Source: an uncultured Methylophilaceae bacterium (GTDB lineage Bacteria > Pseudomonadota > Gammaproteobacteria > Burkholderiales > Methylophilaceae). From it: a DNA stretch of 64,000 nt. Of this stretch, positions 9,685-29,432 are shown piece by piece (within the stretch, counting starts at the first letter, position 1; each line of letters starts with the position of its first letter). Made by a program: the position numbers and the translations under genes. The stretch lies in assembly GCA_964466895.1 (NCBI GenBank), contig CAYXOR010000002.1, forward strand, positions 20,914-84,913, written 5' to 3'. Below the pieces are notes generated by a model that worked only from the letters and a program-made list of their open reading frames with translations, searched no databases and was not told the DNA's origin.

Positions 9685-10851
9685 ATGAAAATAACCGTCG
9701 TAGGCACAGGCTATGTTGGATTGTCAAATGCTATGTTGCTTGCTCAGCATAATGAGGTTGTTGCGCTAGATATCTTGAAAGATAGAATCGCAATGCTTCA
9801 TCGAAGTGAGTCACCTATCGCTGATGAGGAAATAGAAAGTTATCTTAAAAATAAAGCGTTAAATTTTAGGGCAACATTAGATAAGTCAGATGCATATAAA
9901 GATGCACACTATGTTGTTATCGCCACACCAACAGACTACGACTCAGAAACAAATAGTTTTAATACCAGCTCTGTAGAGACCGTTGTTAAAGATGTTATCT
10001 CTATAAACATTAACGCAATTATCGTAATTAAGTCTACAGTGCCTGTTGGCTTTACAGATAAGATAAGAAAGGAGTTGAAAAGCGATAACATTATTTTTTC
10101 ACCAGAATTTTTGCGTGAAGGGAAGGCGCTTAATGACAACTTGAAGCCCACAAGAATTGTTATAGGCGAGCAGTCAAAACGAGCAGAAACGTTTGCATTT
10201 TTATTGCAACAAGGCGCGACAAAGAAAAATATCCCAGTGTTGTATACGCAGTCTAAGGAGGCAGAAGCGATTAAGCTTTTTGCTAATACTTATCTTGCAA
10301 TGCGAGTCGCTTATTTTAATGAGCTTGATACTTATGCTGCCACACTTGAATTGGATGCGAAGCAAATTATTAATGGTGTTTGTCTTGACCCTCGAATTGG
10401 TAATCATTACAACAACCCCTCTTTTGGTTATGGTGGTTATTGCCTACCAAAGGATACTAAACAATTATTAGCTAATTATAAAGGTGTACCGCAAAGCTTA
10501 ATCAATGCAGTGGTTGAGGCTAATACAACACGAAAAGATTTTATTGCAGATTGCATTGTAAAGAAAGAGCCAAAAGTGGTTGGCATTTATCGGTTAACGA
10601 TGAAAAAAGATTCTGATAATTTTCGTGCTAGTGCAATACAAGGGATTATGAAGCGCATCAAGGCTAAAGGTATTGAAGTGGTTGTTTTTGAACCAAGCAT
10701 AACTGAATCAAGTTTTTTTGATTCTAAGGTTATTAATGATTTAGATAAATTTAAACAGTCCGCTGATTTGATTGTGGCAAATAGAGTTGATGATGAGATT
10801 AGAGATGTGGCTGAAAAAGTTTTTAGTCGCGACCTTTTTGGGGCTGATTAA
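9685..10851 (+). CDS. ugd: UDP-glucose 6-dehydrogenase
   Basis: [16 protein letters not shown] Rossmann motif and the catalytic region [10 protein letters not shown]. The track start 9664 is a TTG; ATG 9685 is more likely. Confidence 0.92.
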
Positions 10852-10908
10852 TCATATTTTTTTTGAATATGTATTGCTGGTGCAATTAACATAAGGGAGC
10901 AGTTGTAT

Positions 10909-11994
10909 ATGAGTAAAGTGGCTTTAATTACAGGCGTAACAGGCCAGGATGGTGCTTATTTGGCAGAGCTTTTATTAGGTAAAGGCTACGTTGTGCATGG
11001 CATCAAGCGTCGCGCATCATTGTTTAATACTGATCGAATTGATCATTTGTATCAAGACCCTCATGTGGATAACAAAAACTTTGTACTGCATTATGGCGAT
11101 TTAACTGACTCTACTAATTTAATTCGTATTATTCAGCAAGTTCAGCCTGATGAAATATACAACCTTGCTGCGATGAGTCATGTAGCCGTTAGTTTTGAAA
11201 CACCTGAATATACCGCGAATGCAGATGGTATTGGTACACTTCGGATATTAGAAGCTATTCGAATTTTAGGTTTAGAAAAGAAAACAAAGTTTTATCAAGC
11301 CTCAACTTCTGAACTTTATGGCTTGGTACAAGAAACACCTCAAACAGAAACAACCCCCTTTTACCCACGGAGTCCATATGCAGTGGCGAAGCTTTATGCT
11401 TACTGGATAACGGTGAATTACCGTGAAGCTTATGGTATGTATGCTTGTAATGGCATTTTGTTTAACCACGAGAGCCCAGTCCGAGGTGAAACCTTTGTGA
11501 CAAGAAAGATAACGCGAGCTATTGCTCGTATTAAGCTTGGTCTGCAAGAGTGCTTGTATTTAGGTAACCTTGATGCATTAAGGGACTGGGGGCATGCCAA
11601 AGATTATGTGGAAATGCAATGGTTAATGTTGCAGCAAGATATTGCAGAAGACTTCGTCATTGCAACAGGTAAGCAATATAGTGTGCGAGATTTTGTTAAT
11701 GCATCTGCTAAAGAGTTAGGTATAAGCATCAAATGGCAAGGTAGTGGTGTAGATGAAAAAGGGTACACCGCAGATGGTAGGTGTATTGTTCAAGTCGATT
11801 CACGTTATTTTAGACCAACAGAAGTGGAAACTTTGCTTGGAGACCCAAGTAAAGCCAAACAAAAGCTCGGCTGGACCCCTAAGATTAGTTTTAATGAACT
11901 TGTGTCAGAAATGGTGTGTGAGGATTACAAATCTGCGCAACGTGATGAACTAGTTAAAGAGCACGGTTTCCAAACTATGGATTATCACGAGTAA
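10909..11994 (+). CDS. gmd: GDP-mannose 4,6-dehydratase
   Basis: [36 protein letters not shown] and [17 protein letters not shown] motifs. AAGGGAG RBS upstream of ATG 10909. Confidence 0.95.
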
Positions 11995-12002
11995 TTACCA
12001 CA

Positions 12003-13196
12003 ATGCAGTCAATACTTAATCTAATAGGACGTAGTGACGGGCTTTTTTGTGCTGATGTAGCAGACAATAAAAAAGCGCTGCAAAAGATAGTTAAGAACTC
12101 ATCATTTTTAGTGTTAGGTGCTGCTGGTACTATTGGGCAAGCGGTTGTGAAAGAGATATTTAAACGGAATCCCTCAAAGCTACATGCTGTCGATATTAGT
12201 GAAAACAACATGGTCGAGCTTGTTAGAGACCTACGTAGCTCATGTGGCTATATTGATGGGGAGTTTAAAACCTTTGCCTTGGACATTGGATCTATTGAGT
12301 ATGATGCATTCATCAACTCTGATGGACAGTACGATTATGTTTTGAATTTATCTGCATTAAAGCATGTTCGTAGTGAAAAGGATCCTTTTACATTAATGCG
12401 CATGGTTGATGTTAATGTTTTTAATACAGAAAAAACAATAAAACAGTCTATTAGTAGCGGTAAGGTGAAAAAGTACTTTTGTGTTTCTACGGACAAAGCA
12501 GCAAACCCAGTTAATATGATGGGAGCATCTAAGCGCATTATGGAAATGTTTCTAATGCGTAGAAGTTTGGAGCTGCCAATTTCAACTGCTAGATTTGCAA
12601 ATGTTGCGTTCTCTGATGGCTCATTATTGCACGGGTTTAATCAACGGATTCAAAAAAAGCAACCCATCGTAGCACCGCAAGACATTAAGCGCTATTTTGT
12701 AACGCCGCAAGAATCTGGTGAGTTGTGCTTAATGAGCTGCCTTATGGGTGAGAATAGAGATATATTTTTTCCTAAACTAAGTCGGAAAATGCATTTAATT
12801 TCATTTTCTGATATTGCTGTTAAATATTTAGAGCAACTGGGTTACGAACCTTATCTTTGTTCTTCCGAAGATGAAGCAAGGCGGTTAGTAGGCACACTTC
12901 CAGCAAGCGGAAAATGGCCTTGTTTGTTCACCAATAGTGATACTACAGGCGAAAAAGATTTTGAAGAGTTTTATACAGAGTTAGAGACTCTTGATTTAGA
13001 TAGATTTAATAATATAGGCATAATTAAAAACTCGCCGATATTTGATGATGCTAATTTAAATTTTTTCGAAGCAAAAATTGCTGAACTTAAAACGCAAAAA
13101 AGTTGGAAAAAAGATCAAATTATGCATTTATTTTTCCACATGATACCTAGCTTCTCACATAAAGAAACAGGTAAGTACCTTGATAGCAAGATGTAA
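12003..13196 (+). CDS. Soluble CapD/PglF-type nucleotide-sugar 4,6-dehydratase (short form)
   Basis: VLGAAGTIGQAVVKEI Rossmann motif and STDKAANPVNMMGASKRIMEMF, the CapD/WbpM catalytic signature. 397 aa with no TM domain. Confidence 0.75.
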   Translation: MQSILNLIGRSDGLFCADVADNKKALQKIVKNSSFLVLGAAGTIGQAVVKEIFKRNPSKLHAVDISENNMVELVRDLRSSCGYIDGEFKTFALDIGSIEYDAFINSDGQYDYVLNLSALKHVRSEKDPFTLMRMVDVNVFNTEKTIKQSISSGKVKKYFCVSTDKAANPVNMMGASKRIMEMFLMRRSLELPISTARFANVAFSDGSLLHGFNQRIQKKQPIVAPQDIKRYFVTPQESGELCLMSCLMGENRDIFFPKLSRKMHLISFSDIAVKYLEQLGYEPYLCSSEDEARRLVGTLPASGKWPCLFTNSDTTGEKDFEEFYTELETLDLDRFNNIGIIKNSPIFDDANLNFFEAKIAELKTQKSWKKDQIMHLFFHMIPSFSHKETGKYLDSKM

Positions 13197-14680
13197 TGCT
13201 TTTTAACTCTGTAGTATTTATTTTTGCTTTTTTGCCCATTACCTTTTGGGTTTACTTTTACCTAAATAAAAAAAAATTAACTGAAGCAAGTAAAGGTTTT
13301 TTAGTCTTTAGCAGCTTGTTTTTTTATAGTTGGTGGAATATTGCATATTTACCTCTAATCTTATCCTCAGTGCTGTTTAATTATGTTGTTGGCAATATCC
13401 TGACTAAGAACGAGCACGTGGGCAATAGCCCTAAGGGTTGTAAGCGGCTTTCAAGAAAAAGCATTTTAACTATTGGCGTTATTTTTAATCTTGGACTGCT
13501 CGGATACTTTAAATACAGTGATTTTTTAATTGAAAATACTAATTTTGTCCTTGGTACTAATCATTCATTGTTAAACCTTGCACTTCCGTTAGCAATTTCA
13601 TTTTTCACCTTTCAGCAAATAGCCTACTTAGTAGATAGTTATAGGCAGGAAACAAAGGAGTATGATTTTTTAAACTATGCTAACTTCGTTACTTTTTTTC
13701 CTCAATTGATAGCAGGGCCTATTGTGCATCATAAAGAGATGATGCCACAGTTTTCTAACTCTAGAGCAAAGGTAATAAATTATAAAAACATATCTCTAGG
13801 ACTGTTTATTTTTGCTATTGGACTATTTAAAAAAGTAGTTATTGCTGATTCATTCTCAGGGTGGGCTAATGCTGGGTTTGACACAGCAATTTCATTAAAC
13901 TTTTTTGAGGCTTGGGCAACTAGCCTTTCATACACATTTCAACTCTACTTTGATTTTAGTGGTTATACCGATATGGCTATTGGTGCAGCTTTATTATTTA
14001 ATATAAAGCTACCGATAAATTTTAATAGCCCTTATAAAGCGACCAGCATACAAGACTTTTGGAGACGGTGGCACATTACATTAAGTAGGTTTCTTCGGGA
14101 TTATATATATATTCCACTTGGAGGAAGTCAATTAGGAAATTTTCGAGTATATACAAACGTAATGGCAACTTTTGTTCTTGGTGGAATATGGCATGGTGCG
14201 GGCTGGACATTTATTTTTTGGGGTACTTTACATGGGGTGGCATTAGTTCTATATAGGCTATGGAGTAAATTAGGGATACAAGTTTGGACTTGGTTGTCTT
14301 GGTTTATTACTTTTAACTTTATAAATATTGCATGGGTGTTTTTTAGAGCAAAAGAATGGAACGATTCCATTAAAGTGCTTAAAGGGATGGTTGGAATTAA
14401 TGGAATAATCATTGCAGAAAAGCACGAAAAATATATGGGAGCTTTATCTTCATTTGATTTTATATCCTATGGGGAAGTTACAACTAGCATTGGTGGTGGA
14501 ATGGCTGTTTTAAATTGGCTTTTACTTGGCTTTTTTATGGTTTTATTTACCAAGAATAGTGCTGCGCATGGAGTTGAGTTTAAACCTAACATTTATAAGG
14601 CCTTTTATATGGTTTGCTTATTTGTGGCCTCTGTTTTAATGATGTCAGAAGAAAGTGAATTTTTGTATTTTAATTTTTAG
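13196..14680 (+). CDS. MBOAT-family membrane-bound O-acyltransferase (AlgI/DltB/PatA-like)
   Basis: 494 aa, polytopic. FWRRWHITLSRFLRDYIYIPLGG contains the conserved MBOAT His region. TAATG overlap with the upstream gene. Confidence 0.9.
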   Translation: MLFNSVVFIFAFLPITFWVYFYLNKKKLTEASKGFLVFSSLFFYSWWNIAYLPLILSSVLFNYVVGNILTKNEHVGNSPKGCKRLSRKSILTIGVIFNLGLLGYFKYSDFLIENTNFVLGTNHSLLNLALPLAISFFTFQQIAYLVDSYRQETKEYDFLNYANFVTFFPQLIAGPIVHHKEMMPQFSNSRAKVINYKNISLGLFIFAIGLFKKVVIADSFSGWANAGFDTAISLNFFEAWATSLSYTFQLYFDFSGYTDMAIGAALLFNIKLPINFNSPYKATSIQDFWRRWHITLSRFLRDYIYIPLGGSQLGNFRVYTNVMATFVLGGIWHGAGWTFIFWGTLHGVALVLYRLWSKLGIQVWTWLSWFITFNFINIAWVFFRAKEWNDSIKVLKGMVGINGIIIAEKHEKYMGALSSFDFISYGEVTTSIGGGMAVLNWLLLGFFMVLFTKNSAAHGVEFKPNIYKAFYMVCLFVASVLMMSEESEFLYFNF

Positions 14681-14688
14681 GAAAGAGT

Positions 14689-15783
14689 GTGTATAAAAAA
14701 TATTTAAAACTATCATCACTTCTTTTTATGGCCTTAATGTTATGCATTGCTGGAATAAATATTTTCGTTGACCCTGGTGAGATATATTTTAAAAAAGTTA
14801 TTTCAGAAAATATGTCAAATGATCTTGCAAGTAAATTGCTTCGTTCAGACAATGGTGTAATCCAAACGGGATGGAATGAGCGATTGGTTAAGGTGGCGCT
14901 GGCAAAGGCCGCGGGAGATTTTGACTGCGTGGTCTTGGGTTCTAGCCGGGTTATGCAAATATCAATCATCAGGAATACAGGGGGCATTAAGGAGCAATGT
15001 AATAGCCTTGTTAACTTGGGTGTAAGTGGTGGTGGAATTGAAGATATATCTATATTTTCATATTTGGTGCTAAATAATTCAAAACGACCCAAACGCGTTT
15101 ATATTGGTATTGATCCATGGACGTTAAAGTTTGGTATGGATTCAAGGTACGGAGCATATGAGCATTTGTATGGAAAGATGAATGTTCTTTTAGGTGATGA
15201 AATTTCAATTGAAAACTCTGCATACTCACAGAAAACATTTAAAAATTTATTTAATGGAAAGTACTTCTATCAAAGTATTAGACGTCTCATTAAGGGAGAC
15301 GGTGCTAACTCTAGTTTCATGAAAGAAATACAGTACCCTAAGCGAGGTTTTTCATATGTGACGGGGTATGTTGAAGCGGTCATATTAGCTGATGGCTCAC
15401 ATGTCTATGCAAGAAAATGGATTGAACAGCAAAAGAACAAAAGGGTAAGGCTGGGTGAGGGGAGCTATAAAATAAATGGTATCCCATACGATCCAATTGC
15501 CATAAAATATTTTAAAAAAATTATTGGTTTATATCAAAAAAATGATGTTGAAGTGGAATTGGTTATGATTCCATATCATTCAAATATATTTAAGATAAGG
15601 CAGTCGGAACCTGTTAAAACGATTGCGTTAATAGATCAAGTTGTTAAGAAATTCGCGAAGGAAAATAGTTTAAAATATCATGGTTCATTTATGCCTAATA
15701 TATTGGGGTGTGAAAATATTGAATTTTATGACTTTATGCATCCTACAAATGAATGTCTTAACAAAATTAATTTCGGAGCATGA
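14689..15783 (+). CDS. Membrane-anchored SGNH/DltD-like partner of the MBOAT acyltransferase
   Basis: N-terminal TM anchor, VVLGSSRVMQ (GSS nucleophile block) and C-terminal YDFMHPT (DxxH block). Lies directly downstream of the MBOAT gene. Confidence 0.55.
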   Translation: MYKKYLKLSSLLFMALMLCIAGINIFVDPGEIYFKKVISENMSNDLASKLLRSDNGVIQTGWNERLVKVALAKAAGDFDCVVLGSSRVMQISIIRNTGGIKEQCNSLVNLGVSGGGIEDISIFSYLVLNNSKRPKRVYIGIDPWTLKFGMDSRYGAYEHLYGKMNVLLGDEISIENSAYSQKTFKNLFNGKYFYQSIRRLIKGDGANSSFMKEIQYPKRGFSYVTGYVEAVILADGSHVYARKWIEQQKNKRVRLGEGSYKINGIPYDPIAIKYFKKIIGLYQKNDVEVELVMIPYHSNIFKIRQSEPVKTIALIDQVVKKFAKENSLKYHGSFMPNILGCENIEFYDFMHPTNECLNKINFGA

Positions 15784-21199: not shown

Positions 21200-22258
21200 A
21201 TGACTAATAGTAGCTCCAAAAATAATGCAAGTGAGCAAGTATGCATTGGGTATTCCGATGAAAAGTTAGAAGCGCTTAGTAAATTACAAACTAGATTTGA
21301 GTCGACTATTGTCCCTTGGGCAGCTTGGGAGTCAGAAAACTCAAGTTTTGGTAAAGCTTTTAGAAAGTGGGCATATTTCCCCAAGTTTCTACCACTATAC
21401 CTTTCTTCTGACCATGGTGTTCATTGGGGGGCTAGGTGTTGGCCTAATGAAATAGAGAGCAGATTCAAAAGTTTCTTTACCTGGAATAAAAAAAAATGCA
21501 ATGTAATGCGAAAAGTCCATCGTAAACGTGCTTATCACGTGTCACATCCTTGGGTTAATTATAGGAAGAAATACTTTCCGGAACTTCCAAATGCGAGAGC
21601 AGGAACCTTAGTCTTTTATGCGCACTCAAATACCACTACCACTCCTGTTTATGATGACTTAGATAAATATATAAATGATTTAAAGGCATTGCCAGAAAAG
21701 TATCAACCGATTGTGATTTGCCTTTCATTTCATGATATTAATAAAGAACTTCATAAGAAGTTTAGGAAATATCGGCTGCCTTTGGTCACTGCGGGAACAA
21801 CAAATTCTCAATTATTTGTAGATAGGTTTTACTCGCTAGCATATCAATTTCAGTTTTCATCATCATCAAATATTGGGTCTCATACGTATTATTTAATGGA
21901 AGCAGGAATACCATTTTTTCTTTATGGGCCTTATCCTCAATATAAACATAAAGGATCTTCTTTCGTAAAAGATGGGGATTTATCTCTCAGCAATTATGGC
22001 GATGACGAAGATATCAATGAATTAATGAAATTTAGAGAACTATTATCAACTAACCATGACGAAGTAACTCAAGAGCAATATGTAATTATATCTAAACACT
22101 TGGGCTTAGATTCTGAAATGTCTAGATTTAGAATGTCATTAATATTGTGGCGGGAGCTATTCGTGCATTTTGGCGATTTACTGACTGTTTATATAAGGCA
22201 AGTATTCAAGGTTATTTCCAAAATTACTGTGTTTGTTTTATCGAAGGGTAAACGTTGA
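21200..22258 (+). CDS. Hypothetical protein with no recognisable family (Rossmann/GT-B-like C-terminal half possible)
   Basis: 352-aa ORF with AGGTAGAGAAAG upstream. Its TGA overlaps the TTG start of the next gene. It contains an A9 tract at 21488-21496. Confidence 0.6.
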   Translation: MTNSSSKNNASEQVCIGYSDEKLEALSKLQTRFESTIVPWAAWESENSSFGKAFRKWAYFPKFLPLYLSSDHGVHWGARCWPNEIESRFKSFFTWNKKKCNVMRKVHRKRAYHVSHPWVNYRKKYFPELPNARAGTLVFYAHSNTTTTPVYDDLDKYINDLKALPEKYQPIVICLSFHDINKELHKKFRKYRLPLVTAGTTNSQLFVDRFYSLAYQFQFSSSSNIGSHTYYLMEAGIPFFLYGPYPQYKHKGSSFVKDGDLSLSNYGDDEDINELMKFRELLSTNHDEVTQEQYVIISKHLGLDSEMSRFRMSLILWRELFVHFGDLLTVYIRQVFKVISKITVFVLSKGKR

Positions 22259-24633
22259 AAAAGGGTAGCTCTAAAGCAAGGGTGCTCAAAGGTCTTGAAT
22301 CGAAAATTTCAATATTTAGAGTGCCAAAATTATTATTTTTTGACACAGCAACTTACATGACGTCTCCTGACCAGATAATATCTGAGGTACAAGAGTTTTT
22401 TTGTGAAAAAATCATAGTTGTACGCTCCTCAGCTTCTGATGAAGACGGTTCGCAACACACGCTTGCAGGGGAATATGATTCTGTACTGAATGTACCCTCT
22501 ACAGATCATGAAGCTATACAACAAGCAATTTCAACAGTAATTACAAGTTATAACCGTAACGGTGTACTTACAGGTAGGGATGAGGTTATTGTTCAAGAAA
22601 TGGTACTCAATACTAGTATGAGTGGTGTGATTTTCACCCATGATTTGAATACTGGCGCACCATACTATGTGATTAATTACGATGATGTGTCGGGTTTAAC
22701 TGATACTGTTACATCAGGTGGTGGTGAGTATTCTAACCGCACCTTATATATTCATCGTAGTGCATTAAATTCCCTTCGCTCTGAGCGTTTCCAGCATTTG
22801 ATGGCGGCGATACAAGAGCTTGAAAAAGTCATGGAAAGTCAGTTCCTTGATGTTGAGTTTGCACTGGGGGCTGATTTCACACCTTACTTACTGCAAGTTC
22901 GATCAATTACGACACAGCCAAACTGGAATAGAACTGTATCAAAAAGAATTGATAAAACGTTACGTGGTATTCAATCCTTTGTTAAACAGCGTATGAAACC
23001 TATGGCAAATACTTATGGAGCCACTACCGTTTTAGGGCAAATGCCGGATTGGAATCCAGCAGAAATGATTGGCCGTGCACCTAGAGCTTTAGCGTTCTCG
23101 TTGTATAAAACATTAATTACCGATCATGCATGGCGCATCGCAAGAAAAAAGATGGGGTATGCCGTACCTGAAGGTCAGAACTTAATGGTCTCTCTTGCTG
23201 GGCAGCCCTTTATTGATGCTAGGTTAAGCTTTCATTCTTATTTACCAAGTAACCTACCTTCTGAAATTGGAGAAAAGTTAGTTGATAAATGGGTTATACA
23301 GTTGAAAGATAACCCAGAACTACACGATAAAATAGAATTTGATGTGGCAATAACCACATATAGCTTTGATATTGACACTAAAATGGAGCTGTTAGTGGGC
23401 AATGCTTTGGGCTTAGCTGAAAAAAATAAATTCAAAGAATTGTTACGCTTGCAGACACATAAGTTTCTTTCTAACTCAGGTGAGTTTTGTATTGATGGTG
23501 CACTGTCCAAAATTGAGGCTTTGTCACATAAGCAAAATATAATGAATGGCGAACCTGTTGCAGGCGATGTTTCTGCAATATTTACAATGGTTGAGGATTG
23601 CGTTCATTTAGGGACTATTCCGTTTTCGATTTTAGCTAGACACGGCTTTATCGCAAAAACCATTTTATTGTCACTCAATACTCGCGGGATATTGTCTATG
23701 CAAGATATTCACCAGATACAGTCAGGGGTTCATACTGTTGCCAGTGACTTGGTCAGTGATATGCACAACCTGCAGACGGGCAATTTATCGCATGAAGCGT
23801 TCATGACTCAATATGGGCACTTACGACCAGGTACATATGACATTTTGTCACAAAGGTATGACCAGATGGCTGAATTTGGTCATAATAGTGGCAACCTTAA
23901 GTATGGAAATGAACATGTTGACTTTACGTTGACTAGCGCACAACTGCAGAAAATTGATACCATGTTAGTGCAGGAAGGCTTTAATGATATAGATAGCCAA
24001 AAACTCCTACAATATATCCAAGCAGCTACAGCTAGTCGTGAATATGCAAAATTTATTTTTACGCGCACAGTAAGTGACCTCTTAGAAGTGATTGCAGCTT
24101 TTGGGGAGCAGAACAACTTAAGTCGTGATGAATTGTCACATATCCCGCTCGATAATATTCTGGATACAGTTACCTCTAGTCACGAAAAAGTTGTAGAGAA
24201 AAGATTACGTGAAATTTCAGAAGAGCAGGCTGAACGGCATGCACTAGGTGTTGCTATCCGACTTCCCCAAGTCTTGTTTGATGAGGCGGGGGTGCATGTT
24301 GTGCCTTTTCAAGTTAGCCACCCAAACTTTATCACACATAAAAAAGTGACAGGGCCATGCATTAATCTTGGGCCTGATATCTCAGCGCCACCTTTAAAAG
24401 GTATGATTGTGGTTATTGAAAATGCTGACCCAGGTTTTGATTGGATATTTTCCCAAGAAATCGCTGGACTTATCACAAAATATGGTGGTGCTAATTCACA
24501 TATGGCTATTAGGTGCGCAGAGTTTGGTATTCCCGCAGCAATCGGCTGTGGTGAACAAAGGTATGAGTTGTTCTGTAATTCAAATCAATTGTTACTAGAT
24601 TGTGCAGCTGGTCTTATTAAGGCACTACATTAG
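22255..24633 (+). CDS. PEP-utilising-enzyme-like phosphohistidine kinase lacking the PEP/pyruvate domain (Cj1418 L-glutamine kinase-like)
   Basis: PPDK_N-type motif IVVRSSASDEDGSQHTLAGEYDSVLNV. Swivel-domain motif GGANSHMAIRCAEFGIPAAIGCG lies about 44 aa from the C-terminus, with no TIM-barrel domain after it. The TTG start at 22255 keeps the GSSKARVLKGL N-terminal motif. Confidence 0.7.
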   Translation: MKKGSSKARVLKGLESKISIFRVPKLLFFDTATYMTSPDQIISEVQEFFCEKIIVVRSSASDEDGSQHTLAGEYDSVLNVPSTDHEAIQQAISTVITSYNRNGVLTGRDEVIVQEMVLNTSMSGVIFTHDLNTGAPYYVINYDDVSGLTDTVTSGGGEYSNRTLYIHRSALNSLRSERFQHLMAAIQELEKVMESQFLDVEFALGADFTPYLLQVRSITTQPNWNRTVSKRIDKTLRGIQSFVKQRMKPMANTYGATTVLGQMPDWNPAEMIGRAPRALAFSLYKTLITDHAWRIARKKMGYAVPEGQNLMVSLAGQPFIDARLSFHSYLPSNLPSEIGEKLVDKWVIQLKDNPELHDKIEFDVAITTYSFDIDTKMELLVGNALGLAEKNKFKELLRLQTHKFLSNSGEFCIDGALSKIEALSHKQNIMNGEPVAGDVSAIFTMVEDCVHLGTIPFSILARHGFIAKTILLSLNTRGILSMQDIHQIQSGVHTVASDLVSDMHNLQTGNLSHEAFMTQYGHLRPGTYDILSQRYDQMAEFGHNSGNLKYGNEHVDFTLTSAQLQKIDTMLVQEGFNDIDSQKLLQYIQAATASREYAKFIFTRTVSDLLEVIAAFGEQNNLSRDELSHIPLDNILDTVTSSHEKVVEKRLREISEEQAERHALGVAIRLPQVLFDEAGVHVVPFQVSHPNFITHKKVTGPCINLGPDISAPPLKGMIVVIENADPGFDWIFSQEIAGLITKYGGANSHMAIRCAEFGIPAAIGCGEQRYELFCNSNQLLLDCAAGLIKALH

Positions 24634-24648
24634 GAGGGAAGTATATTT

Positions 24649-25176
24649 ATGGTTATTTGGATTATTGGTTTATCTGGCACGGGAAAAACCACTTTGGCCA
24701 ATGAGGTTGTCAATAGGATTCGCCAATTAAAGAGAAAGGTAGTTATGTTGGATGGTGATTTAATCAGGGACCTTTTTGGAAATGACGTAGACCACACTAT
24801 AGAAGGTCGAAAGCGTAATGCTGAAAGGTTGTCGGTTTTAACAAAGTATCTCGCTGATCAAGATATACATGTAGTTGCGGCAGTGCTTTCAATCTTTCCT
24901 GAATGGCGGCTCTGGAATAGAGAGAATATTAATCATTACTCAGAAGTGTATATAAAATCCTCTATGGAGACTCTGGCTAGACGAGACATTAAAAACTTAT
25001 ATGCAAGGGCAATTAAGGGTGAAATTGTAAATGTGGTTGGTGTGGACATCCCATTTCCTGAACCTCAGAACCCAGAGTTGGTTATAGAGAATGATGTTGA
25101 CCGAGTTGAATTCAGTGAATTTATAGATCAAATAATGAACCTTAATGTGGTGAGAGAGACTCTAGAAAAAGCATGA
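24649..25176 (+). CDS. APS-kinase-fold small kinase (Cj1415 cytidine diphosphoramidate kinase-like / CysC-like)
   Basis: 175 aa. P-loop IIGLSGTGKTTLA and the MLDGDLIRD motif. GGAGGGAAG RBS. Confidence 0.75.
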   Translation: MVIWIIGLSGTGKTTLANEVVNRIRQLKRKVVMLDGDLIRDLFGNDVDHTIEGRKRNAERLSVLTKYLADQDIHVVAAVLSIFPEWRLWNRENINHYSEVYIKSSMETLARRDIKNLYARAIKGEIVNVVGVDIPFPEPQNPELVIENDVDRVEFSEFIDQIMNLNVVRETLEKA

Positions 25177-26384
25177 TTTTTCTTGCATTAACCATAGTAT
25201 TTATCATTCTTCTTGAAGTTGGGTTATATGCCGTCGTGTTTATACAGCGACGCAGCTTTCCTTGGTTGATAACTGAGGCGGATGAGTTGCCAGCATTTGA
25301 TTCTCAAGCACTTCATAAATTCTTAGAATACAGTTTTGACCCACATTTAGGATGGGTCAGGCGACCTAATTCAAGCGGTACAGAAAATGGACAAAATGGT
25401 AAAATCACTTTTAATATAGACTCATCAGGCTCCCGTAGCAATTCCTTAGAAAAGTCATCTCCAGTTATGGCTGCTTTTGGAGACTCTTACGCTTTTTGTC
25501 GTCAAGTAGAGGATGATGAAACATGGGAAAGTCAACTAGCACAACAAAAAAGTTTCGGTGTAATGAATTTTGGAGTTGGCAATTACGGGGTTGATCAAGC
25601 GCTATTACGCTACAAGAGTATGAGCTTGCCAGAAACGGTGCAAGTTGTCGTCATGGCGTTTGTGCCAGAAACTATTTGCAGAATACAATCTTATTGGAAA
25701 CATTATCTAGAGTTTGGAAATACATTTGCGTTTAAGCCACGATTCATGCTCAACTCAAATGACAATCTAATTTTGTTAAACAACCTTATACGTGGTAATG
25801 AGGATTATTTGGCTTATCGCGAAAAACTTCCTGAAATTCAAAAAAAAGATGGGTTTTATAAGAAGAAATTTCGTTCACAGCAATTTCGTTTTCCGTATCT
25901 CTTTAGCTTAATGCGAAACCCGATAAAGCAAAGCTTGCTAATTTCAGCAGTGGCCATTAGAGGAGCATGTCGTGTTTTAGGCATTTCAAGCGCTAAGATA
26001 GAAAACCTACCATTCAAACTGGTAATGAAAAGAAACCTTCAAGATGCGCATGAATTATACAAAGAAGATAAATCGAAACAACTTTTGAACGCCATTTTGT
26101 TGAGTTTTAGAGATGAAGCTATTCAACGGGGGCATACTCCATTAATTGTTGTTATGCCTCAATTACTAGACATTATGCTAGGCGAAAGTAGTGTTGCTCC
26201 ATACCAAGAGTACTTTAATGGATTAGCGAAAAGCTTGCCCGTAATTGATCTTACAAATGAGTTTATTAAGGCTGATTTTGAGAAACTTTATATTAATGAT
26301 CAATATGGAGGGCACTTATCAGTTAGAGGAAACTCTTTGGTTGCTAAAGAAATATCACTTTGGCTTAAATCACAGGGCCTGTAA
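25173..26384 (+). CDS. Membrane-anchored SGNH/GDSL-hydrolase-like protein
   Basis: N-terminal TM helix. AAFGDSYAF (block I GDS) and NFGVGNYGVDQ (block II-like). ATGA overlap with the kinase gene. Confidence 0.6.
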   Translation: MIFLALTIVFIILLEVGLYAVVFIQRRSFPWLITEADELPAFDSQALHKFLEYSFDPHLGWVRRPNSSGTENGQNGKITFNIDSSGSRSNSLEKSSPVMAAFGDSYAFCRQVEDDETWESQLAQQKSFGVMNFGVGNYGVDQALLRYKSMSLPETVQVVVMAFVPETICRIQSYWKHYLEFGNTFAFKPRFMLNSNDNLILLNNLIRGNEDYLAYREKLPEIQKKDGFYKKKFRSQQFRFPYLFSLMRNPIKQSLLISAVAIRGACRVLGISSAKIENLPFKLVMKRNLQDAHELYKEDKSKQLLNAILLSFRDEAIQRGHTPLIVVMPQLLDIMLGESSVAPYQEYFNGLAKSLPVIDLTNEFIKADFEKLYINDQYGGHLSVRGNSLVAKEISLWLKSQGL

Positions 26385-26408
26385 AAGGCAGAGGAAGGAA
26401 AGTACTTG

Positions 26409-27197
26409 ATGAGAATTACTTATCGAAATGCAAATAATAAAGATTATTGGACAAAGCGTTGGGACGATATCCCCGCTGATGCTCCTATGGAAAACTTGAA
26501 TGTATATCCACTCAAATACGCGCAGATGACTGTGAAAGATGATGCTGGAAAAATTCTTGAAGCAGGCTGTGGTGCTGGGCGTGTTTTACGTTATTACCAT
26601 AACCGGGGTTACAATATTTTAGGCTTCGATTTTATTGATGTTGCCATCAGCAAGCTCAAGAAAATTGATCCGTCATTGCAAGCAGAAGTAGGAGATATAA
26701 CTAAACTGAGGTTTTCCGATCAATCGTTTAAGTATGTTTTAGCTTTTGGGCTTTATCACAACCTTGAGCATGGCTTAGATAAAGCTATTCAAGAGACACA
26801 TAGAGTATTAGAACAGAATGGATTAGTCTGTGCGTCTTTTAGAGCGGACAATATACAGACGAAACTTACGGATTGGTTGGCTAATAGAAAATCAAAAAAT
26901 AAACAAGGGGCAGAGGTTGGGTCTTTTCACAAAATGAACTTAACTCGCAATGAATACGAACAGTTGTTCATTCGTGCTGGTTTTGATATTAACTTTATTG
27001 GACCAGTAGAAAATATGCCAATACTATATAAATTCTCTATTTTTAGATCTACAAAGCATAAGGTATTTGACGAAAATAGAGCGCGCATGGAAGGCTATCG
27101 TCTATCTTGGTTTGGACAGATGCTCCAAAATTTATTGATGAAGGTTTTGCCCGATCAATTTTGTAATATTTACGTTATTATCGCACGCAAAGTCTGA
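26409..27197 (+). CDS. Class I SAM-dependent methyltransferase
   Basis: KILEAGCGAGRVLRYY motif I and LGFDFIDVAI motif II. ATG 26409 is preferred over TTG 26406. Confidence 0.8.
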   Translation: MRITYRNANNKDYWTKRWDDIPADAPMENLNVYPLKYAQMTVKDDAGKILEAGCGAGRVLRYYHNRGYNILGFDFIDVAISKLKKIDPSLQAEVGDITKLRFSDQSFKYVLAFGLYHNLEHGLDKAIQETHRVLEQNGLVCASFRADNIQTKLTDWLANRKSKNKQGAEVGSFHKMNLTRNEYEQLFIRAGFDINFIGPVENMPILYKFSIFRSTKHKVFDENRARMEGYRLSWFGQMLQNLLMKVLPDQFCNIYVIIARKV

Positions 27198-27280
27198 TTA
27201 TCAACTCTCAATTAAAAATTAGTGTCGGTATTACTCAGCGCATAGATGATATAAAAGGTCGTGATGAGTTTCGTGATGCT

Positions 27281-27856
27281 GTGGATCAGAGGTTGTTAAA
27301 GTGGATCATACAAGCAGGGTTCTTACCAGTTGTAGTTCCAAATGTATTGTTCGATACCGGCTGTTCTAACCAAGAGCAGGGCGCAATAGTTTTAGAGCAT
27401 TGGTTGCAAACTCAGTCGCTTGGTGCTTTGCTCCTCTCGGGAGGGAATAATATAGGTGATTTTCCTCAACGCGATGCGACTGAATGTTATCTATTAGCGT
27501 GGGCAGAAGCTAATAACATTCCAACCTTGGGCATCTGTAGAGGAATGCAAATGATGGCGGTATGGGCTGGCGCGCAGTTAAGAGAAGTTGGCGGGCATGT
27601 TAGAACGCGGCATCAATTGACGGCTCATGGAGGTGTTGGTGACTGGCCTGTATCTGTAAATAGTTACCATGACTGGAATATACAACATTGCCCCAAACAG
27701 TTTAAGGTCTCTGCCACGGCAGAAAATGGGGACATAGAGGCTATGTGTCATCAAACTTTGCCTTGGGAGGGCTGGATGTGGCATCCTGAGCGCGAACAAA
27801 AAATCTGCATAGAGGACACAATGAGAGTTAAAAGGTTATTTAATGGAAAACAATAA
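27281..27856 (+). CDS. Class I glutamine amidotransferase-like / peptidase C26 gamma-glutamyl hydrolase (Cj1417-like)
   Basis: LGICRGMQMM nucleophile elbow and WMWHPE His-Glu. The frame is open back to 27167 and encodes a family-typical N-terminus (KISVGITQRIDD..RDAVDQ) with no ATG/GTG/TTG. The true start is therefore probably near 27194-27200. Confidence 0.75.
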   Translation: MDQRLLKWIIQAGFLPVVVPNVLFDTGCSNQEQGAIVLEHWLQTQSLGALLLSGGNNIGDFPQRDATECYLLAWAEANNIPTLGICRGMQMMAVWAGAQLREVGGHVRTRHQLTAHGGVGDWPVSVNSYHDWNIQHCPKQFKVSATAENGDIEAMCHQTLPWEGWMWHPEREQKICIEDTMRVKRLFNGKQ

Positions 27857-28625
27857 AAATATCAAAGCAATTATTCTTGCCGCTGGAGAAGGTACACGCC
27901 TGCGGCCTTACACGTTGGAAAAACCGAAATGTTTGGTTGAAGTTGATAATAAAAGCTTACTAGACCGTCAACTGTCAGTGTTATCAAGTTCAGGAGTCAC
28001 TTCAATAGTTATTATTGGCGGCTACAAGGCTGAAATGTTGCAACGTGATGGTATTGATCTGAAAATTAACCCAAGGTACGCAGAGACCAATATGGTTTGG
28101 ACCTTGTTTTGTGCTGAAGGTGAACTTGAAGGCGATGTCATTATCTCTTATGGAGATATTGTTTATTCTCAGGAAGTACTACAGTCTTTATTGGCCTCTG
28201 ATGCAGATATTGCCGTTGCAATCGACTTGGAATGGGAATCGTATTGGAGAGCAAGAAATGAAGAGCCTCTTGATGATGCTGAAACATTGAAGATGCACCC
28301 AGATGGACGCATTTACGAGATTGGAAATAAACCCAAGTCTTTGGGCGAGATTGAAGGTCAATACATGGGCTTAATTAAAGTGACTCAAGAAGGAGTTAAT
28401 GGATTAAAATCCGTATTCCAAAAAGCACACGATGCAGAAGGTTTACTTGGTAAACCTGTAGAAAACGCTTATATGACGGACCTGTTGCAGGCGATGATTA
28501 ATGCGAACTATTCAGTGCAATCGGTACCTGTGAAAGCTGGCTGGGTAGAGGTGGATACCGTAAGCGATTTACATTCTACACCGACAAAAAATCGACTTTT
28601 AAAAATCGAAGAGGCTATTGTTTAA
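27843..28625 (+). CDS. LicC/Cj1416-like cytidylyltransferase (nucleotidyltransferase family)
   Basis: IKAIILAAGEGTRLRPYTLEKPKCLVEV signature; 260 aa. 14-nt overlap with the upstream gene. Confidence 0.8.
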   Translation: MENNKNIKAIILAAGEGTRLRPYTLEKPKCLVEVDNKSLLDRQLSVLSSSGVTSIVIIGGYKAEMLQRDGIDLKINPRYAETNMVWTLFCAEGELEGDVIISYGDIVYSQEVLQSLLASDADIAVAIDLEWESYWRARNEEPLDDAETLKMHPDGRIYEIGNKPKSLGEIEGQYMGLIKVTQEGVNGLKSVFQKAHDAEGLLGKPVENAYMTDLLQAMINANYSVQSVPVKAGWVEVDTVSDLHSTPTKNRLLKIEEAIV

Positions 28626-29383
28626 TGGCTGATTTAATTAGTGGTTTCTTTTCTGACAAGTACGCTAACCATAAAGCAATTGGAGCTAACGTATTGCTTT
28701 TGCTTATGTATAGATTTTCTTATCCATTTTCTTTTGTATTGTATAGACTGGGATTTAGCCCGAACCAAATAACCACCTTATCAACTTTTTCTGCAATACT
28801 GGCAGCAACTTTTCTTATACTCGGCTATCATGAAATCTGGTTTTTGGTTTTCTGGTCAGGGTCGATATTGTTGGATTTTTGCGATGGCACTGTAGCAAGA
28901 ATGTCTAACAATATATCTAAAACTGCTTTTCGGTATGATCATATGAGTGATATATTTAAAATATTTATCATTATGCTTGCCACAGGTGTTTATTATAATA
29001 GTTTATTAATCTGGCTGTCGTCTATGACAGCTTGTTTTTTCTTTATGTATTTCATGCTACTAAATCATGAGCTTAGTAATATAACTAAATTGTTAGAAAG
29101 AAAGAAAAACAAATCTCAAGAACAACAATTTAAAAGTGCTGCTACCCCAAGTAAAGGTATATTTAAATTGGTTAAAACATTAATTTCTAATGATTTTATT
29201 TTAAAGTTTTTAAGGATTGTTTATATAGCATTAACAACTATTAATGGACACACTCTTTTGTTATTTTTGATGATGCCTTTCAATCAAAAATTGGCTGCAT
29301 GTAGTTTTTTCTATCTGACTACGCTTTCTATTTTAGGTGTCATTAGTCGAATTTCAGCACTTAGGAAGATTCCTAAACAATGA
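28625..29383 (+). CDS. CDP-alcohol phosphotransferase-family integral membrane protein
   Basis: DFCDGTVAR-MSNNISKT-A-FRY-D-HMS-D matches DxxDG(x2)AR(x8)[G->A](x3)D(x3)D. About 6 TM helices. TAATG overlap with the cytidylyltransferase gene. Confidence 0.7.
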   Translation: MADLISGFFSDKYANHKAIGANVLLLLMYRFSYPFSFVLYRLGFSPNQITTLSTFSAILAATFLILGYHEIWFLVFWSGSILLDFCDGTVARMSNNISKTAFRYDHMSDIFKIFIIMLATGVYYNSLLIWLSSMTACFFFMYFMLLNHELSNITKLLERKKNKSQEQQFKSAATPSKGIFKLVKTLISNDFILKFLRIVYIALTTINGHTLLLFLMMPFNQKLAACSFFYLTTLSILGVISRISALRKIPKQ

Positions 29384-29392
29384 TTGGTAAAT

Positions 29393-29410
29393 AACCCCTT
29401 TAAAGGGGTT
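29393..29410. terminator. 18-bp perfect palindrome AACCCCTTTAAAGGGGTT: hairpin, weak terminator/attenuator or protein site
   Basis: Read directly. It lies in the 49-nt gap between the CDP-alcohol phosphotransferase gene and the ABC transporter gene, followed by GGAATTTTAATG. Confidence 0.3.
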
Positions 29411-29432
29411 GGAATTTTAATGTATAGCAGAA

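Follow-up and report, generated by a model that had tools for sequence, protein, structure and literature searches.

This report concerns a 64,000-nucleotide stretch of DNA from an uncultured Methylophilaceae bacterium (contig CAYXOR010000002.1 of assembly GCA_964466895.1), referred to here over its full length as the window, and in particular a gene within it for an integral membrane protein of the CDP-alcohol phosphotransferase superfamily (CDP being cytidine diphosphate; the protein and its relatives are abbreviated below to CDP-AP), which is put forward as a candidate transferase of phosphoramidate groups to a glycan. The gene is the last of a tightly packed, co-directional module (21200–29383) in which several genes overlap by 4–14 nt. 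It lies directly behind a gene for a LicC-type cytidylyltransferase, and in the sequence gtttaatggc (28620–28629) the TAA stop codon of the one (28623–28625) and the ATG start codon of the other (28625–28627) have base 28625 in common (TAATG).

The superfamily signature D-x2-D-G-x2-A-R-x8-G-x3-D-x3-D, which runs from the second to the third transmembrane helix, can be read in the translation as D84-F-C-D87-G88-T-V-A91-R92-(x8)-A101-F-R-Y-D105-H-M-S-D109, the sole departure being the replacement of Gly by Ala at position 101, and the PF01066 profile matches the protein at 37.1 bits (gathering score 22, E = 5.2e-9). When the protein is aligned with 44 relatives of 38–75% identity, residues D84, D87, G88, A91, R92, D105 and D109 are found to be invariant and A101 nearly so, and therefore the motif reflects a conserved active site and not a chance resemblance; W77, C86 and a C-terminal motif, N207-G208-H209-T210, are invariant as well, except that N207 and T210 are only nearly so. 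An AlphaFold2 (AF2) model calculated from this alignment (predicted local distance difference test score, pLDDT, 89.9) is an all-helical membrane bundle, for which Foldseek returns AF2299 and the membrane domain of IPCT-DIPPS as the top matches in the PDB (probability 1.00, E from 9e-5 to 5e-4), the probability being 1.00 also for PIPS and PgsA; the TM-score normalised to the query is 0.53–0.58 against AF2299, IPCT-DIPPS and the best PIPS chains, and about 0.4 against PgsA. Taken together, the invariant motif, the PF01066 match and the predicted fold suggest that the protein is catalytically competent. It falls below the cut-off of every NCBIfam equivalog for a characterised synthase, the highest score being that for archaetidylinositol phosphate synthase (AIPS; 37.8 against a cut-off of 180), with PIPS (32.3 against 170), ClsA (17.1 against 240), IPCT-DIPPS (NF041135; 16.3 against 580) and pssA (16.2 against 107) further down, and judged by these profiles it is not a housekeeping lipid synthase.

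The genes further upstream can best be described by reference to the O-methyl phosphoramidate (MeOPN) of the Campylobacter jejuni capsule, for which Cj1418, Cj1416, Cj1417 and Cj1415 make 3'-phospho-cytidine diphosphoramidate, Cj1419 and Cj1420 are the methyltransferases, and transfer has been assigned genetically to Cj1421 and Cj1422 (PMC11800397). Each of the four corresponding donor-pathway proteins in the window shows its catalytic motifs in translation. In the Cj1418-like glutamine kinase the phosphohistidine motif GGANSHMAIR is readable, and the protein scores 831.6 bits (cut-off 501) against PRK05849, the NCBIfam model that we take to be that of Cj1418. The Cj1415-like protein matches PRK05541 at 172 bits (cut-off 127) and has the P-loop GLSGTGKTT; its adenosine phosphosulfate (APS)-kinase fold is certain, while its specificity for cytidine diphosphoramidate (CDP-amidate) over APS is something that we infer from context. 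For the Cj1417-like hydrolase, in which the nucleophile motif GICRGMQ and a His-Pro-Glu (HPE) motif are present, the top NCBIfam model is NF045546, gamma-glutamyl-CDP-amidate hydrolase, at 82 bits (E = 5e-23), a score below the equivalog cut-off of 250. The cytidylyltransferase carries the nucleotidyltransferase motif GxGTRLRP and has as its closest solved relative the pneumococcal CTP:phosphocholine cytidylyltransferase LicC (E = 8e-17); it is 38–42% identical to plasmid genes of the 'phosphocholine cytidylyltransferase family' that follow a kinase and a hydrolase, and is here likened to Cj1416 without a specific model. The S-adenosylmethionine (SAM)-dependent methyltransferase of the module has homologues of 55–87% identity in the other full-set loci of gamma- and betaproteobacterial type, and of 37% in a locus from Bacteroidota (L012). 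An earlier note on this DNA, made from the sequence alone, had described the two open reading frames (27843–28625 and 28625–29383) with their one-base overlap, a polytopic membrane protein with a signature altered only from Gly to Ala, a LicC-like cytidylyltransferase and the genes of a neighbouring pathway upstream, and each of these descriptions is borne out by the sequence, motif, model and family matches just given. The features are collected in Table 1.

Table 1 Features of the module and its immediate surroundings, in window coordinates.
Feature	Position	Strand	Basis and remarks
unk352, 352 aa, GT-B-like, uncharacterised family	21200–22258	+	AF2 and Foldseek; no Pfam or NCBIfam match
Cj1418-like ATP-dependent L-glutamine kinase	22255–24633	+	PPDK_N ATP-binding (PF01326) and PEP-utiliser phosphohistidine (PF00391) domains
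APS-kinase-fold kinase, Cj1415-like (cytidine diphosphoramidate 3'-kinase type)	24649–25176	+	PF01583, 116 bits
403-aa protein with N-terminal membrane helix and faint SGNH/GDSL signature	25173–26384	+	NF047475 (SGNH/GDSL esterase), faint match
Class I SAM-dependent methyltransferase, candidate O-methylase of phosphoramidate	26406–27197	+	PF08241, PF13649
Class I glutamine-amidotransferase-type hydrolase, Cj1417-like (gamma-glutamyl-CDP-amidate hydrolase type)	27281–27856	+	PF07722, PF00117
LicC-type cytidylyltransferase, Cj1416-like (CTP:phosphoglutamine cytidylyltransferase type), 260 aa	27843–28625	+	PF00483, PF12804
CDP-AP, 252 aa, integral membrane, distinct subfamily	28625–29383	+	PF01066, motif, fold; proposed phosphoramidate:glycan transferase
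Terminator-like hairpin	29392–29411	+	TAACCCCTTTAAAGGGGTTG (second listing: CCCCTTTAAAGGGG), then T-rich tail; consensus scan
Half-size ABC exporter, MsbA/PglK-like, 592 aa	29433–31211	+	PF00664, PF00005

A word-indexed search found 177 relatives of the CDP-AP protein, all of 225–278 aa, those that bear names being mostly labelled 'phosphatidylglycerophosphate synthase' or 'CDP-alcohol phosphatidyltransferase family protein', and an exhaustive profile search of 1.84 billion representatives gave 112 clusters at E ≤ 1e-30 and 245 at E ≤ 1e-10. The subfamily is small, distinct and rare, but with about 112 clusters (defined at 50% identity) it is not unique. Fusions of a cytidylyltransferase to a CDP-AP, as in IPCT-DIPPS, were not found among 150 representatives, all of which are 104–307 aa long (most of them 200–290). 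The loci surveyed for gene neighbourhood comprised 11 from species-representative genomes, 80 from metagenomes and several reached by exact protein look-up; homologues of the window genes were placed on them by tblastn, and 68 full-length members were placed on a neighbour-joining tree.

Within the clade that contains the window protein, each member with sufficient flanking sequence has both an APS-kinase-like gene and a methyltransferase. The complete set (Cj1418-like, APS-kinase-like, methyltransferase, hydrolase and cytidylyltransferase) accompanies the CDP-AP gene in 24 loci, cultured strains with the full set being Methyloversatilis universalis EHg5 (L009) and Denitromonas ohlonensis SFB-1 (L014) among others, and wherever a cytidylyltransferase and a CDP-AP are both present the former usually lies directly upstream of the latter on the same strand (30 of 36 loci). 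The linkage extends over Gamma- and Betaproteobacteria, Bacteroidota (L012) and Longimicrobiales (L015), being seen in Methylophaga, Methyloversatilis, Denitromonas, Propionivibrio, Sideroxydans, Gallionellaceae, Salinivirgaceae (Bacteroidota) and a Longimicrobiales metagenome-assembled genome, so that the co-occurrence survey proposed in the earlier note ties the subfamily to Cj1415–1418-like genes in dozens of loci from several phyla. Eight loci, called type-B here, have a different arrangement: one gene joins an APS-kinase domain with a class I methyltransferase domain unlike that of the window, and in all eight this fusion is directly upstream of the CDP-AP gene (positions for seven of them: L004:8741-9973, L013:8760-9989, L015:8755-9930, L016:2429-3628, L027:8819-9976, L032:8820-9980 and L099:11091-12275). 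Methylophaga nitratireducenticrescens and a Hydrogenophaga metagenome-assembled genome (GCA_025699295.1) are among the type-B strains. The fusion hints that both activities act on the same nucleotide substrate. A search of the type-B loci for an alternative head-group cassette came upon only sugar-nucleotide enzymes, glycosyltransferases and Wzy. Since a Cj1415-like kinase is found in every locus that has a complete kinase, hydrolase and cytidylyltransferase set in its flank, as well as in every type-B locus, the donor is probably the 3'-phosphorylated form of CDP-amidate.

In sister clades of the family the partner genes are of another kind. Six loci (L069, at 10001–14025, together with L055, L078, L077, L043 and L072) have the CDP-AP gene followed immediately by a fusion of a cytidylyltransferase to phosphoenolpyruvate (PEP) mutase, and next to this, where the contig continues, by genes for phosphonopyruvate decarboxylase and an iron alcohol dehydrogenase (Fe-ADH). 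The window itself contains no PEP mutase. In a further locus (L076, 4156–8976) the phosphonate cassette and the CDP-AP gene are transcribed towards each other, and the PEP mutase is above its equivalog cut-off (364 against 319.55). The operon of this cassette includes a homologue of unk352 (see below) and also an APS-kinase-like gene, the latter suggesting that the CMP-phosphonate donors are 3'-phosphorylated as well. Given that the partners of the family are either amidate or phosphonate cassettes, the common partner can be described as a cassette making a cytidylyl-activated, unusual phosphorus head group, and by their sequence context the sister-clade proteins are candidate phosphonate:glycan transferases. 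Two positions in the alignment follow the type of cassette, one of them (103, in AFRYDH) inside the catalytic motif and the other (208, in NGHT) in the C-terminal motif: R103 and G208 are present in every one of the 42 members whose partners are amidate genes or the kinase-methyltransferase fusion, while the phosphonate-linked members (n = 6) have Asn, Ser or Gly at 103 (R103 in none of the six) and mostly Ala or Thr at 208. These differences are consistent with donor specificity, and the retention of the amidate-type residues in type-B enzymes suggests that there the same donor is made elsewhere in the genome.

An independent sample was obtained by choosing loci according to the kinase instead of the transferase, the plasmids of PLSDB being searched by tblastn with the Cj1418-like protein, which gave 14 records; the same database searched with the window CDP-AP gave no match. 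In pYa108 of Vibrio alfacsensis the genes for kinase, hydrolase and cytidylyltransferase are followed directly by one annotated as a 'CDP-glycerol glycerophosphotransferase family protein', i.e. a TagF-like enzyme, and in pRvVAT039a of Agrobacterium vitis (L106:8761-13850) the same three kinds of gene precede those for a LysE exporter and for a 'CDP-alcohol phosphatidyltransferase family protein' of 220 aa, which has only the signature region in common with the window protein and so was recruited independently. That the slot behind the cytidylyltransferase should be held by two unrelated families of CDP-X phosphotransferases, alike in moving P-X from CDP-X and setting CMP free, is the strongest argument for regarding the window CDP-AP as the head-group transferase. 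Other plasmids offer other partners: the kinase of Pseudohalocynthiibacter has upstream of it a protein of 410 aa that matches the TagF family below threshold, and plasmid AZO_p6 of Azospirillum lipoferum 4B (L108:5626-15092) has donor genes that include an 846-aa APS-kinase fusion, together with a methyltransferase and two sulfotransferase-domain proteins. Proteins of the sulfotransferase fold would be natural users of a 3'-phospho-CDP-amidate resembling 3'-phosphoadenosine phosphosulfate (PAPS). Three non-homologous solutions (CDP-AP, TagF-like and sulfotransferase-domain proteins) appear to serve one donor pathway.

Some further details of these plasmid loci may be recorded here. The V. alfacsensis cluster (L104:6472-8877) has no APS-kinase-like gene and adjoins divergent cysD and cysN genes (sulfate adenylyltransferase). 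That of A. vitis has as its neighbours an amino-acid-tRNA-ligase-related gene, a TauD dioxygenase and an asparaginase, with no glycan genes, and looks like a small-molecule or lipid phosphoramidate cluster; in Azospirillum sp. TSA2s (L102) the phosphoramidate donor genes are accompanied by large TPR proteins. Several large proteins were at one stage suspected of being transferases of the C. jejuni kind. A pair of paralogues of 617 and 621 aa on a Deltaproteobacterium plasmid, suspected of being MeOPN transferases, are B12-binding radical SAM enzymes, and a protein of about 600 aa beside the kinase in L009 and L012, suspected of being Cj1421-like, is a TIGR04331 (LIC12162-family) transferase, which is found with both types of cassette and is absent from the window. 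There is no uncharacterised open reading frame of about 600 aa near the module in the window.

The module forms part of one large glycan locus, extending from about 8.2 to 49.5 kb of the window with every gene on the plus strand. It holds enzymes of GDP-mannose and GDP-fucose type, a complete nonulosonic-acid set (a PseB/LegB-like dehydratase, an aminotransferase, a PglD-like acetyltransferase, NeuB, a PseF-like CMP-sugar synthetase and a CBS-nucleotidyltransferase), several GT2 and GT4 glycosyltransferases, AsnB, and FkbM-type and other methyltransferases, in addition to a PglC-like initiating phosphoglycosyl transferase and a WbpM-like dehydratase. The ABC exporter encoded immediately downstream of the CDP-AP gene is likely to be the flippase or exporter of a lipid-linked glycan, and a homologue of it adjoins the CDP-AP gene also in outer clades (L052, L058, L068, L076 and L100). 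Because the PglC-like initiator, the glycosyltransferases and this exporter belong to the same operon-like array, a membrane-bound acceptor should be available to the enzyme. Between the CDP-AP and exporter genes there is a gap of 49 nt containing a terminator-like hairpin, which begins 9 nt past the CDP-AP stop codon and is the sole sizeable intergenic signal in an otherwise tightly packed array; in a consensus scan the number of terminator-like sites in the region was not above chance, so the hairpin is suggestive by position only.

Of the remaining genes in the module, that for the 403-aa protein is the least readily placed. Scans against Pfam gave no match for it and those against NCBIfam only the faint one to NF047475, though GDS and DxxH-like SGNH motifs can be made out. 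Homologues occupy the place between the kinase and methyltransferase genes of L008, L010, L019, L021, L022, L045 and L059, and in other loci the slot is taken by an unknown protein of 230–250 aa together with a formyltransferase-N-like protein. It may be one half of an MBOAT/SGNH O-acylation pair, or it may have a role tied to the phosphorus group; 10 kb upstream of it are genes for an MBOAT acyltransferase and for a protein of 364 aa that matches no family (13196–14680 and 14689–15783). The G+C content is about 39% in the donor-pathway genes (window 22000–28000) and 33–35% in the flanking glycan genes, a contrast that fits acquisition of the module as a cassette.

In CDP-AP enzymes generally, a CDP-X donor releases CMP while P-X is transferred, and this is precisely the chemistry that phosphoramidate transfer requires. 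The reading that we regard as probable, while some way from assured, is that the window enzyme transfers phosphoramidate from CDP-amidate, or from its 3'-phosphorylated form, to a lipid-linked glycan. According to this scheme L-glutamine would be N-phosphorylated by the Cj1418-like kinase, the phosphoglutamine would react with CTP under the action of the cytidylyltransferase (27843–28625) to give CDP-L-glutamine, the amidotransferase-type hydrolase would free glutamate to leave cytidine diphosphoramidate, and the APS-kinase-like enzyme would then phosphorylate the 3'-hydroxyl. As to the acceptor, the presence of the PglC-like initiator, glycosyltransferases and exporter in the same array points to a hydroxyl of an undecaprenyl-diphosphate-linked nonulosonic-acid glycan, which the Asp-rich metal site of the CDP-AP would activate at the cytoplasmic face of the membrane. 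Attack of this hydroxyl on the beta-phosphorus of the donor would expel CMP or 3',5'-cytidine bisphosphate (pCp), giving sugar-O-P(O)(O-)NH2. The O-methyl ester would be formed by the SAM methyltransferase either before or after transfer, possibly on the nucleotide donor, and the decorated lipid-linked glycan would be moved across the membrane by the downstream ABC exporter. In the sister clades the same reaction would take place with CMP-activated phosphonates. The scheme agrees with the first of two suggestions in the earlier note, that the membrane enzyme uses a CDP-X intermediate of the neighbouring pathway, which the linkage of the loci, the phosphonate clades, the co-varying residues and the replacements within the slot all favour; a short cut round the 3'-phosphorylated donor is improbable, given the presence of the Cj1415-like kinase.

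The most serious competitor for the role of transferase is the product of unk352, whose stop codon overlaps the start of the Cj1418-like gene by 4 nt. Its family has 130 members of about 345 aa, all 'hypothetical', that accompany the CDP-AP family in taxonomic range and on individual contigs alike, and its AF2 model (pLDDT 94) is two-Rossmann-like, giving weak GT-B/TagF matches in Foldseek (best E = 6e-3; TagF itself at probability 0.89, E = 8e-3 and a TM-score of 0.32–0.35, among many GT-B enzymes). It could thus be that unk352, or the TIGR04331 protein that occupies the same slot elsewhere, is the phosphoramidate or phosphonate transferase, in the manner of TagF or FtaD, and that the CDP-AP does some other job such as making a lipid-linked primer. 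Besides the weak TagF-like fold and the gene overlap, this would accord with the single operon of unk352, APS-kinase-like gene and phosphonate cassette in L076, with the equivalent position of the Pseudohalocynthiibacter protein upstream of its kinase, and with the fact that TagF-like enzymes do install CDP-activated head groups on glycans, as FtaD does in Clostridioides difficile (bioRxiv 10.64898/2026.02.12.704994). A Pfam scan finds no PF04464 match in unk352, however, and profile comparison shows no similarity to the TagF-like or unknown 410–413-aa proteins of the plasmid loci, nor to WbuX; moreover, both unk352 and TIGR04331 are missing from several fully covered loci that have the full cassette and a CDP-AP together (L010, L021, L022, L039, L013 and L015), and such an assignment would leave an intact CDP-X phosphotransferase with no donor. 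The family has nearly invariant SDH and HPW motifs, the latter presumably recalling the HP motif of bacterial CMP-sugar transferases. Since unk352 alternates with TIGR04331 (a family that NCBI defines from O-antigen loci, the two being mutually exclusive and each taking the slot that separates nonulosonic-acid genes from the kinase), is lacking from those complete loci, and is present in a nonulosonic-acid locus (L098) that has neither cassette nor CDP-AP within 10 kb, it probably acts as the glycosyltransferase for the nonulosonic-acid acceptor sugar, and as such a candidate new transferase family; that it should itself transfer the phosphorus group we consider unlikely, if worth taking seriously. 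Proteins of about 410 aa that are paired with unk352 in some loci were also looked into, and are WbuX N-acetyl-sugar amidotransferases, unrelated to phosphorus transfer.

Two other explanations retain the CDP-AP as a phosphotransferase and change its donor. Its donor might be CDP itself or a housekeeping CDP-alcohol, CDP-diacylglycerol for example, with no involvement of the phosphoramidate genes, and what it attaches to the glycan or its primer ahead of export by the ABC protein might be a phosphatidyl, a phosphoglycerol or a plain phosphate group; the type-B loci, and also L052, L058 and L100, do lack a special head-group cytidylyltransferase within 10 kb, the MsbA/PglK-like exporter does adjoin the CDP-AP gene in outer clades, and users of CDP-diacylglycerol (PIPS and PgsA) are among the solved relatives. 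Set against this are the dedicated cytidylyltransferase coupled to or directly before the CDP-AP gene in 30 of 36 loci, the cytidylyltransferase-PEP-mutase fusion immediately beside it in six others, the variation of residues 103 and 208 with cassette type (type-B enzymes keeping those of amidate type), the failure of every lipid-synthase equivalog, and the nature of the nearest solved folds, DIPPS and AF2299, which are enzymes of soluble CDP-alcohols or of unknown substrate, so that a housekeeping donor seems distinctly unlikely. The second suggestion of the earlier note, an independent module for choline, ethanolamine, glycerol or inositol phosphates, fares no better, as there are no such head-group genes and the best of the synthase models reaches only 37.8 against 180; nor does the protein fall in a PgsA, PssA or Pcs clade lacking a link to phosphoramidate genes, an outcome that the earlier note had envisaged as telling against its proposal. 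Alternatively the CDP-AP could transfer phosphoglutamine straight from CDP-L-glutamine, to give a glutamine-N-phosphodiester decoration. The translational coupling is, after all, to the enzyme whose product CDP-L-glutamine would be, and CDP-amino-acid donors are known in C. difficile (bioRxiv 10.64898/2026.02.12.704994). But a Cj1417-type hydrolase, apparently intact in its Cys and His-Pro-Glu residues, stands between the two steps in every full-set locus, and the conserved 3'-kinase and methyltransferase would then be pointless, making CDP-glutamine, which the earlier note had listed as a donor, a very improbable choice indeed.

There are, of course, clear points that weigh against phosphoramidate transfer by the CDP-AP. 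The whole case is one of comparative genomics, resting on gene neighbourhood and homology, and we know of no CDP-AP that accepts a 3'-phosphorylated nucleotide. No homologue of Cj1416–1418 was detected by tblastn within 10 kb in the eight type-B loci, implying either that the donor is made in trans there or that it differs, and three well-covered outer-clade loci (L052, L058 and L100) show no head-group cassette within 10 kb. The co-variation at positions 103 and 208 does not amount to independent proof, because the differences track clades. Orthology to the C. jejuni enzymes is drawn from NCBIfam models (that for the hydrolase being below its cut-off) and domain architecture and not from direct comparison, PDB sequence searches with the window kinase, 3'-kinase, hydrolase and cytidylyltransferase having returned no C. 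jejuni entry. Finally, unk352 could be the real transferase, considering its tight co-occurrence with the CDP-AP, its weakly TagF-like fold and the L076 operon.

If phosphoramidate transfer by the CDP-AP is accepted for the sake of comparison, the window resembles the C. jejuni system in having what are probably the same four donor-building enzyme types and a SAM methyltransferase in one co-directional module of a surface-polysaccharide locus, the likeness being one to models and domain architecture and not to C. jejuni sequences. It differs in that the transferase slot is taken by a small integral-membrane CDP-AP, whereas Cj1421 and Cj1422 are large soluble proteins, in that the glycan is a nonulosonic-acid glycan of the undecaprenyl-phosphate/ABC-exporter type as opposed to a Kdo-anchored capsule, and in that the hosts are environmental Proteobacteria and Bacteroidota. 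The archaeal IPCT-DIPPS and AF2299 (PDB 4mnd and 4o6m), which use soluble CDP-alcohol donors, are the best matches in structure and sequence and have the same Asp motif, and in IPCT-DIPPS too a cytidylyltransferase makes CDP-X for a membrane CDP-AP. There, however, the two are fused, while the window has separate overlapping genes (NF041135 giving 16 bits against 580); the window family has in addition the N-G-H-T motif and the Arg of AFRYDH, its proposed donor has P-NH2 and perhaps a 3'-phosphate, and its acceptor would be a glycan in place of inositol phosphate. In the FtaABCD pathway of C. difficile, which provides CDP-threonine for the Type A glycan of flagellin, the methyltransferase FtaC works on the CDP donor (bioRxiv 10.64898/2026.02.12.704994), a precedent for the kinase-methyltransferase fusions described above. 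As is proposed for the window, a cytidylyltransferase, a SAM methyltransferase and a CDP-X:glycan phosphotransferase put an unusual phospho-head group on a glycan, but FtaD is soluble and TagF-like, has no CDP-AP motif, and adds phospho-N-methylthreonine to GlcNAc on a protein. For phosphonates, cytidylyl activation before transfer to cell-surface glycans is established, with LicD-like phosphotransferases and glycosyltransferases named as neighbours of the phosphonate genes and the term CDP-alcohol absent (PMC6697681); the sister-clade CDP-APs likewise adjoin a cytidylyltransferase-PEP-mutase, Ppd and Fe-ADH, recalling tailoring by Ppm/Ppd and PntC with LicD-like transferases.

Putting these strands together, one may speculate that the subfamily as a whole is a general membrane platform by which lipid-linked nonulosonic-acid glycans receive exotic phosphorus head groups, of the P-N (phosphoramidate) kind in one clade and of the C-P (phosphonate) kind in its sisters, from PAPS-like cytidine-nucleotide donors 3'-phosphorylated by APS-kinase-like enzymes, with the type-B loci yielding some further methylated phosphorus decoration, for instance O-methyl phosphate from a housekeeping cytidine nucleotide. 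Taken as a single claim this is possible, and on balance rather doubtful.

No reconstitution of the step that joins O-methyl phosphoramidate to sugars is known to us, from C. jejuni or from elsewhere. The transfer step is listed as future work in a 2025 paper from the group working on the donor pathway (PMC12409886). Full-text literature searches found no paper connecting a CDP-alcohol phosphotransferase to phosphoramidate transfer, the only co-mention being a Borg-element preprint in which both kinds of gene occur, unconnected, in one region, so that while the superfamily and the donor pathway are each known, their combination and the role proposed for it on sequence grounds appear not to have been described previously. 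If the proposal is correct, the attachment step of MeOPN would become directly testable, using a transferase from a well-understood family with solved relatives and a simple assay of CMP release, and there would be a rule for replacing the label 'phosphatidylglycerophosphate synthase' that these proteins now carry. To the lipids and osmolytes in the substrate range of CDP-alcohol phosphotransferases there would be added glycan head groups of the P-N and C-P kinds, and decoration of glycans with phosphoramidate, no longer confined to Campylobacter, would be widespread among environmental methylotrophs, denitrifiers, iron oxidisers and Bacteroidota.

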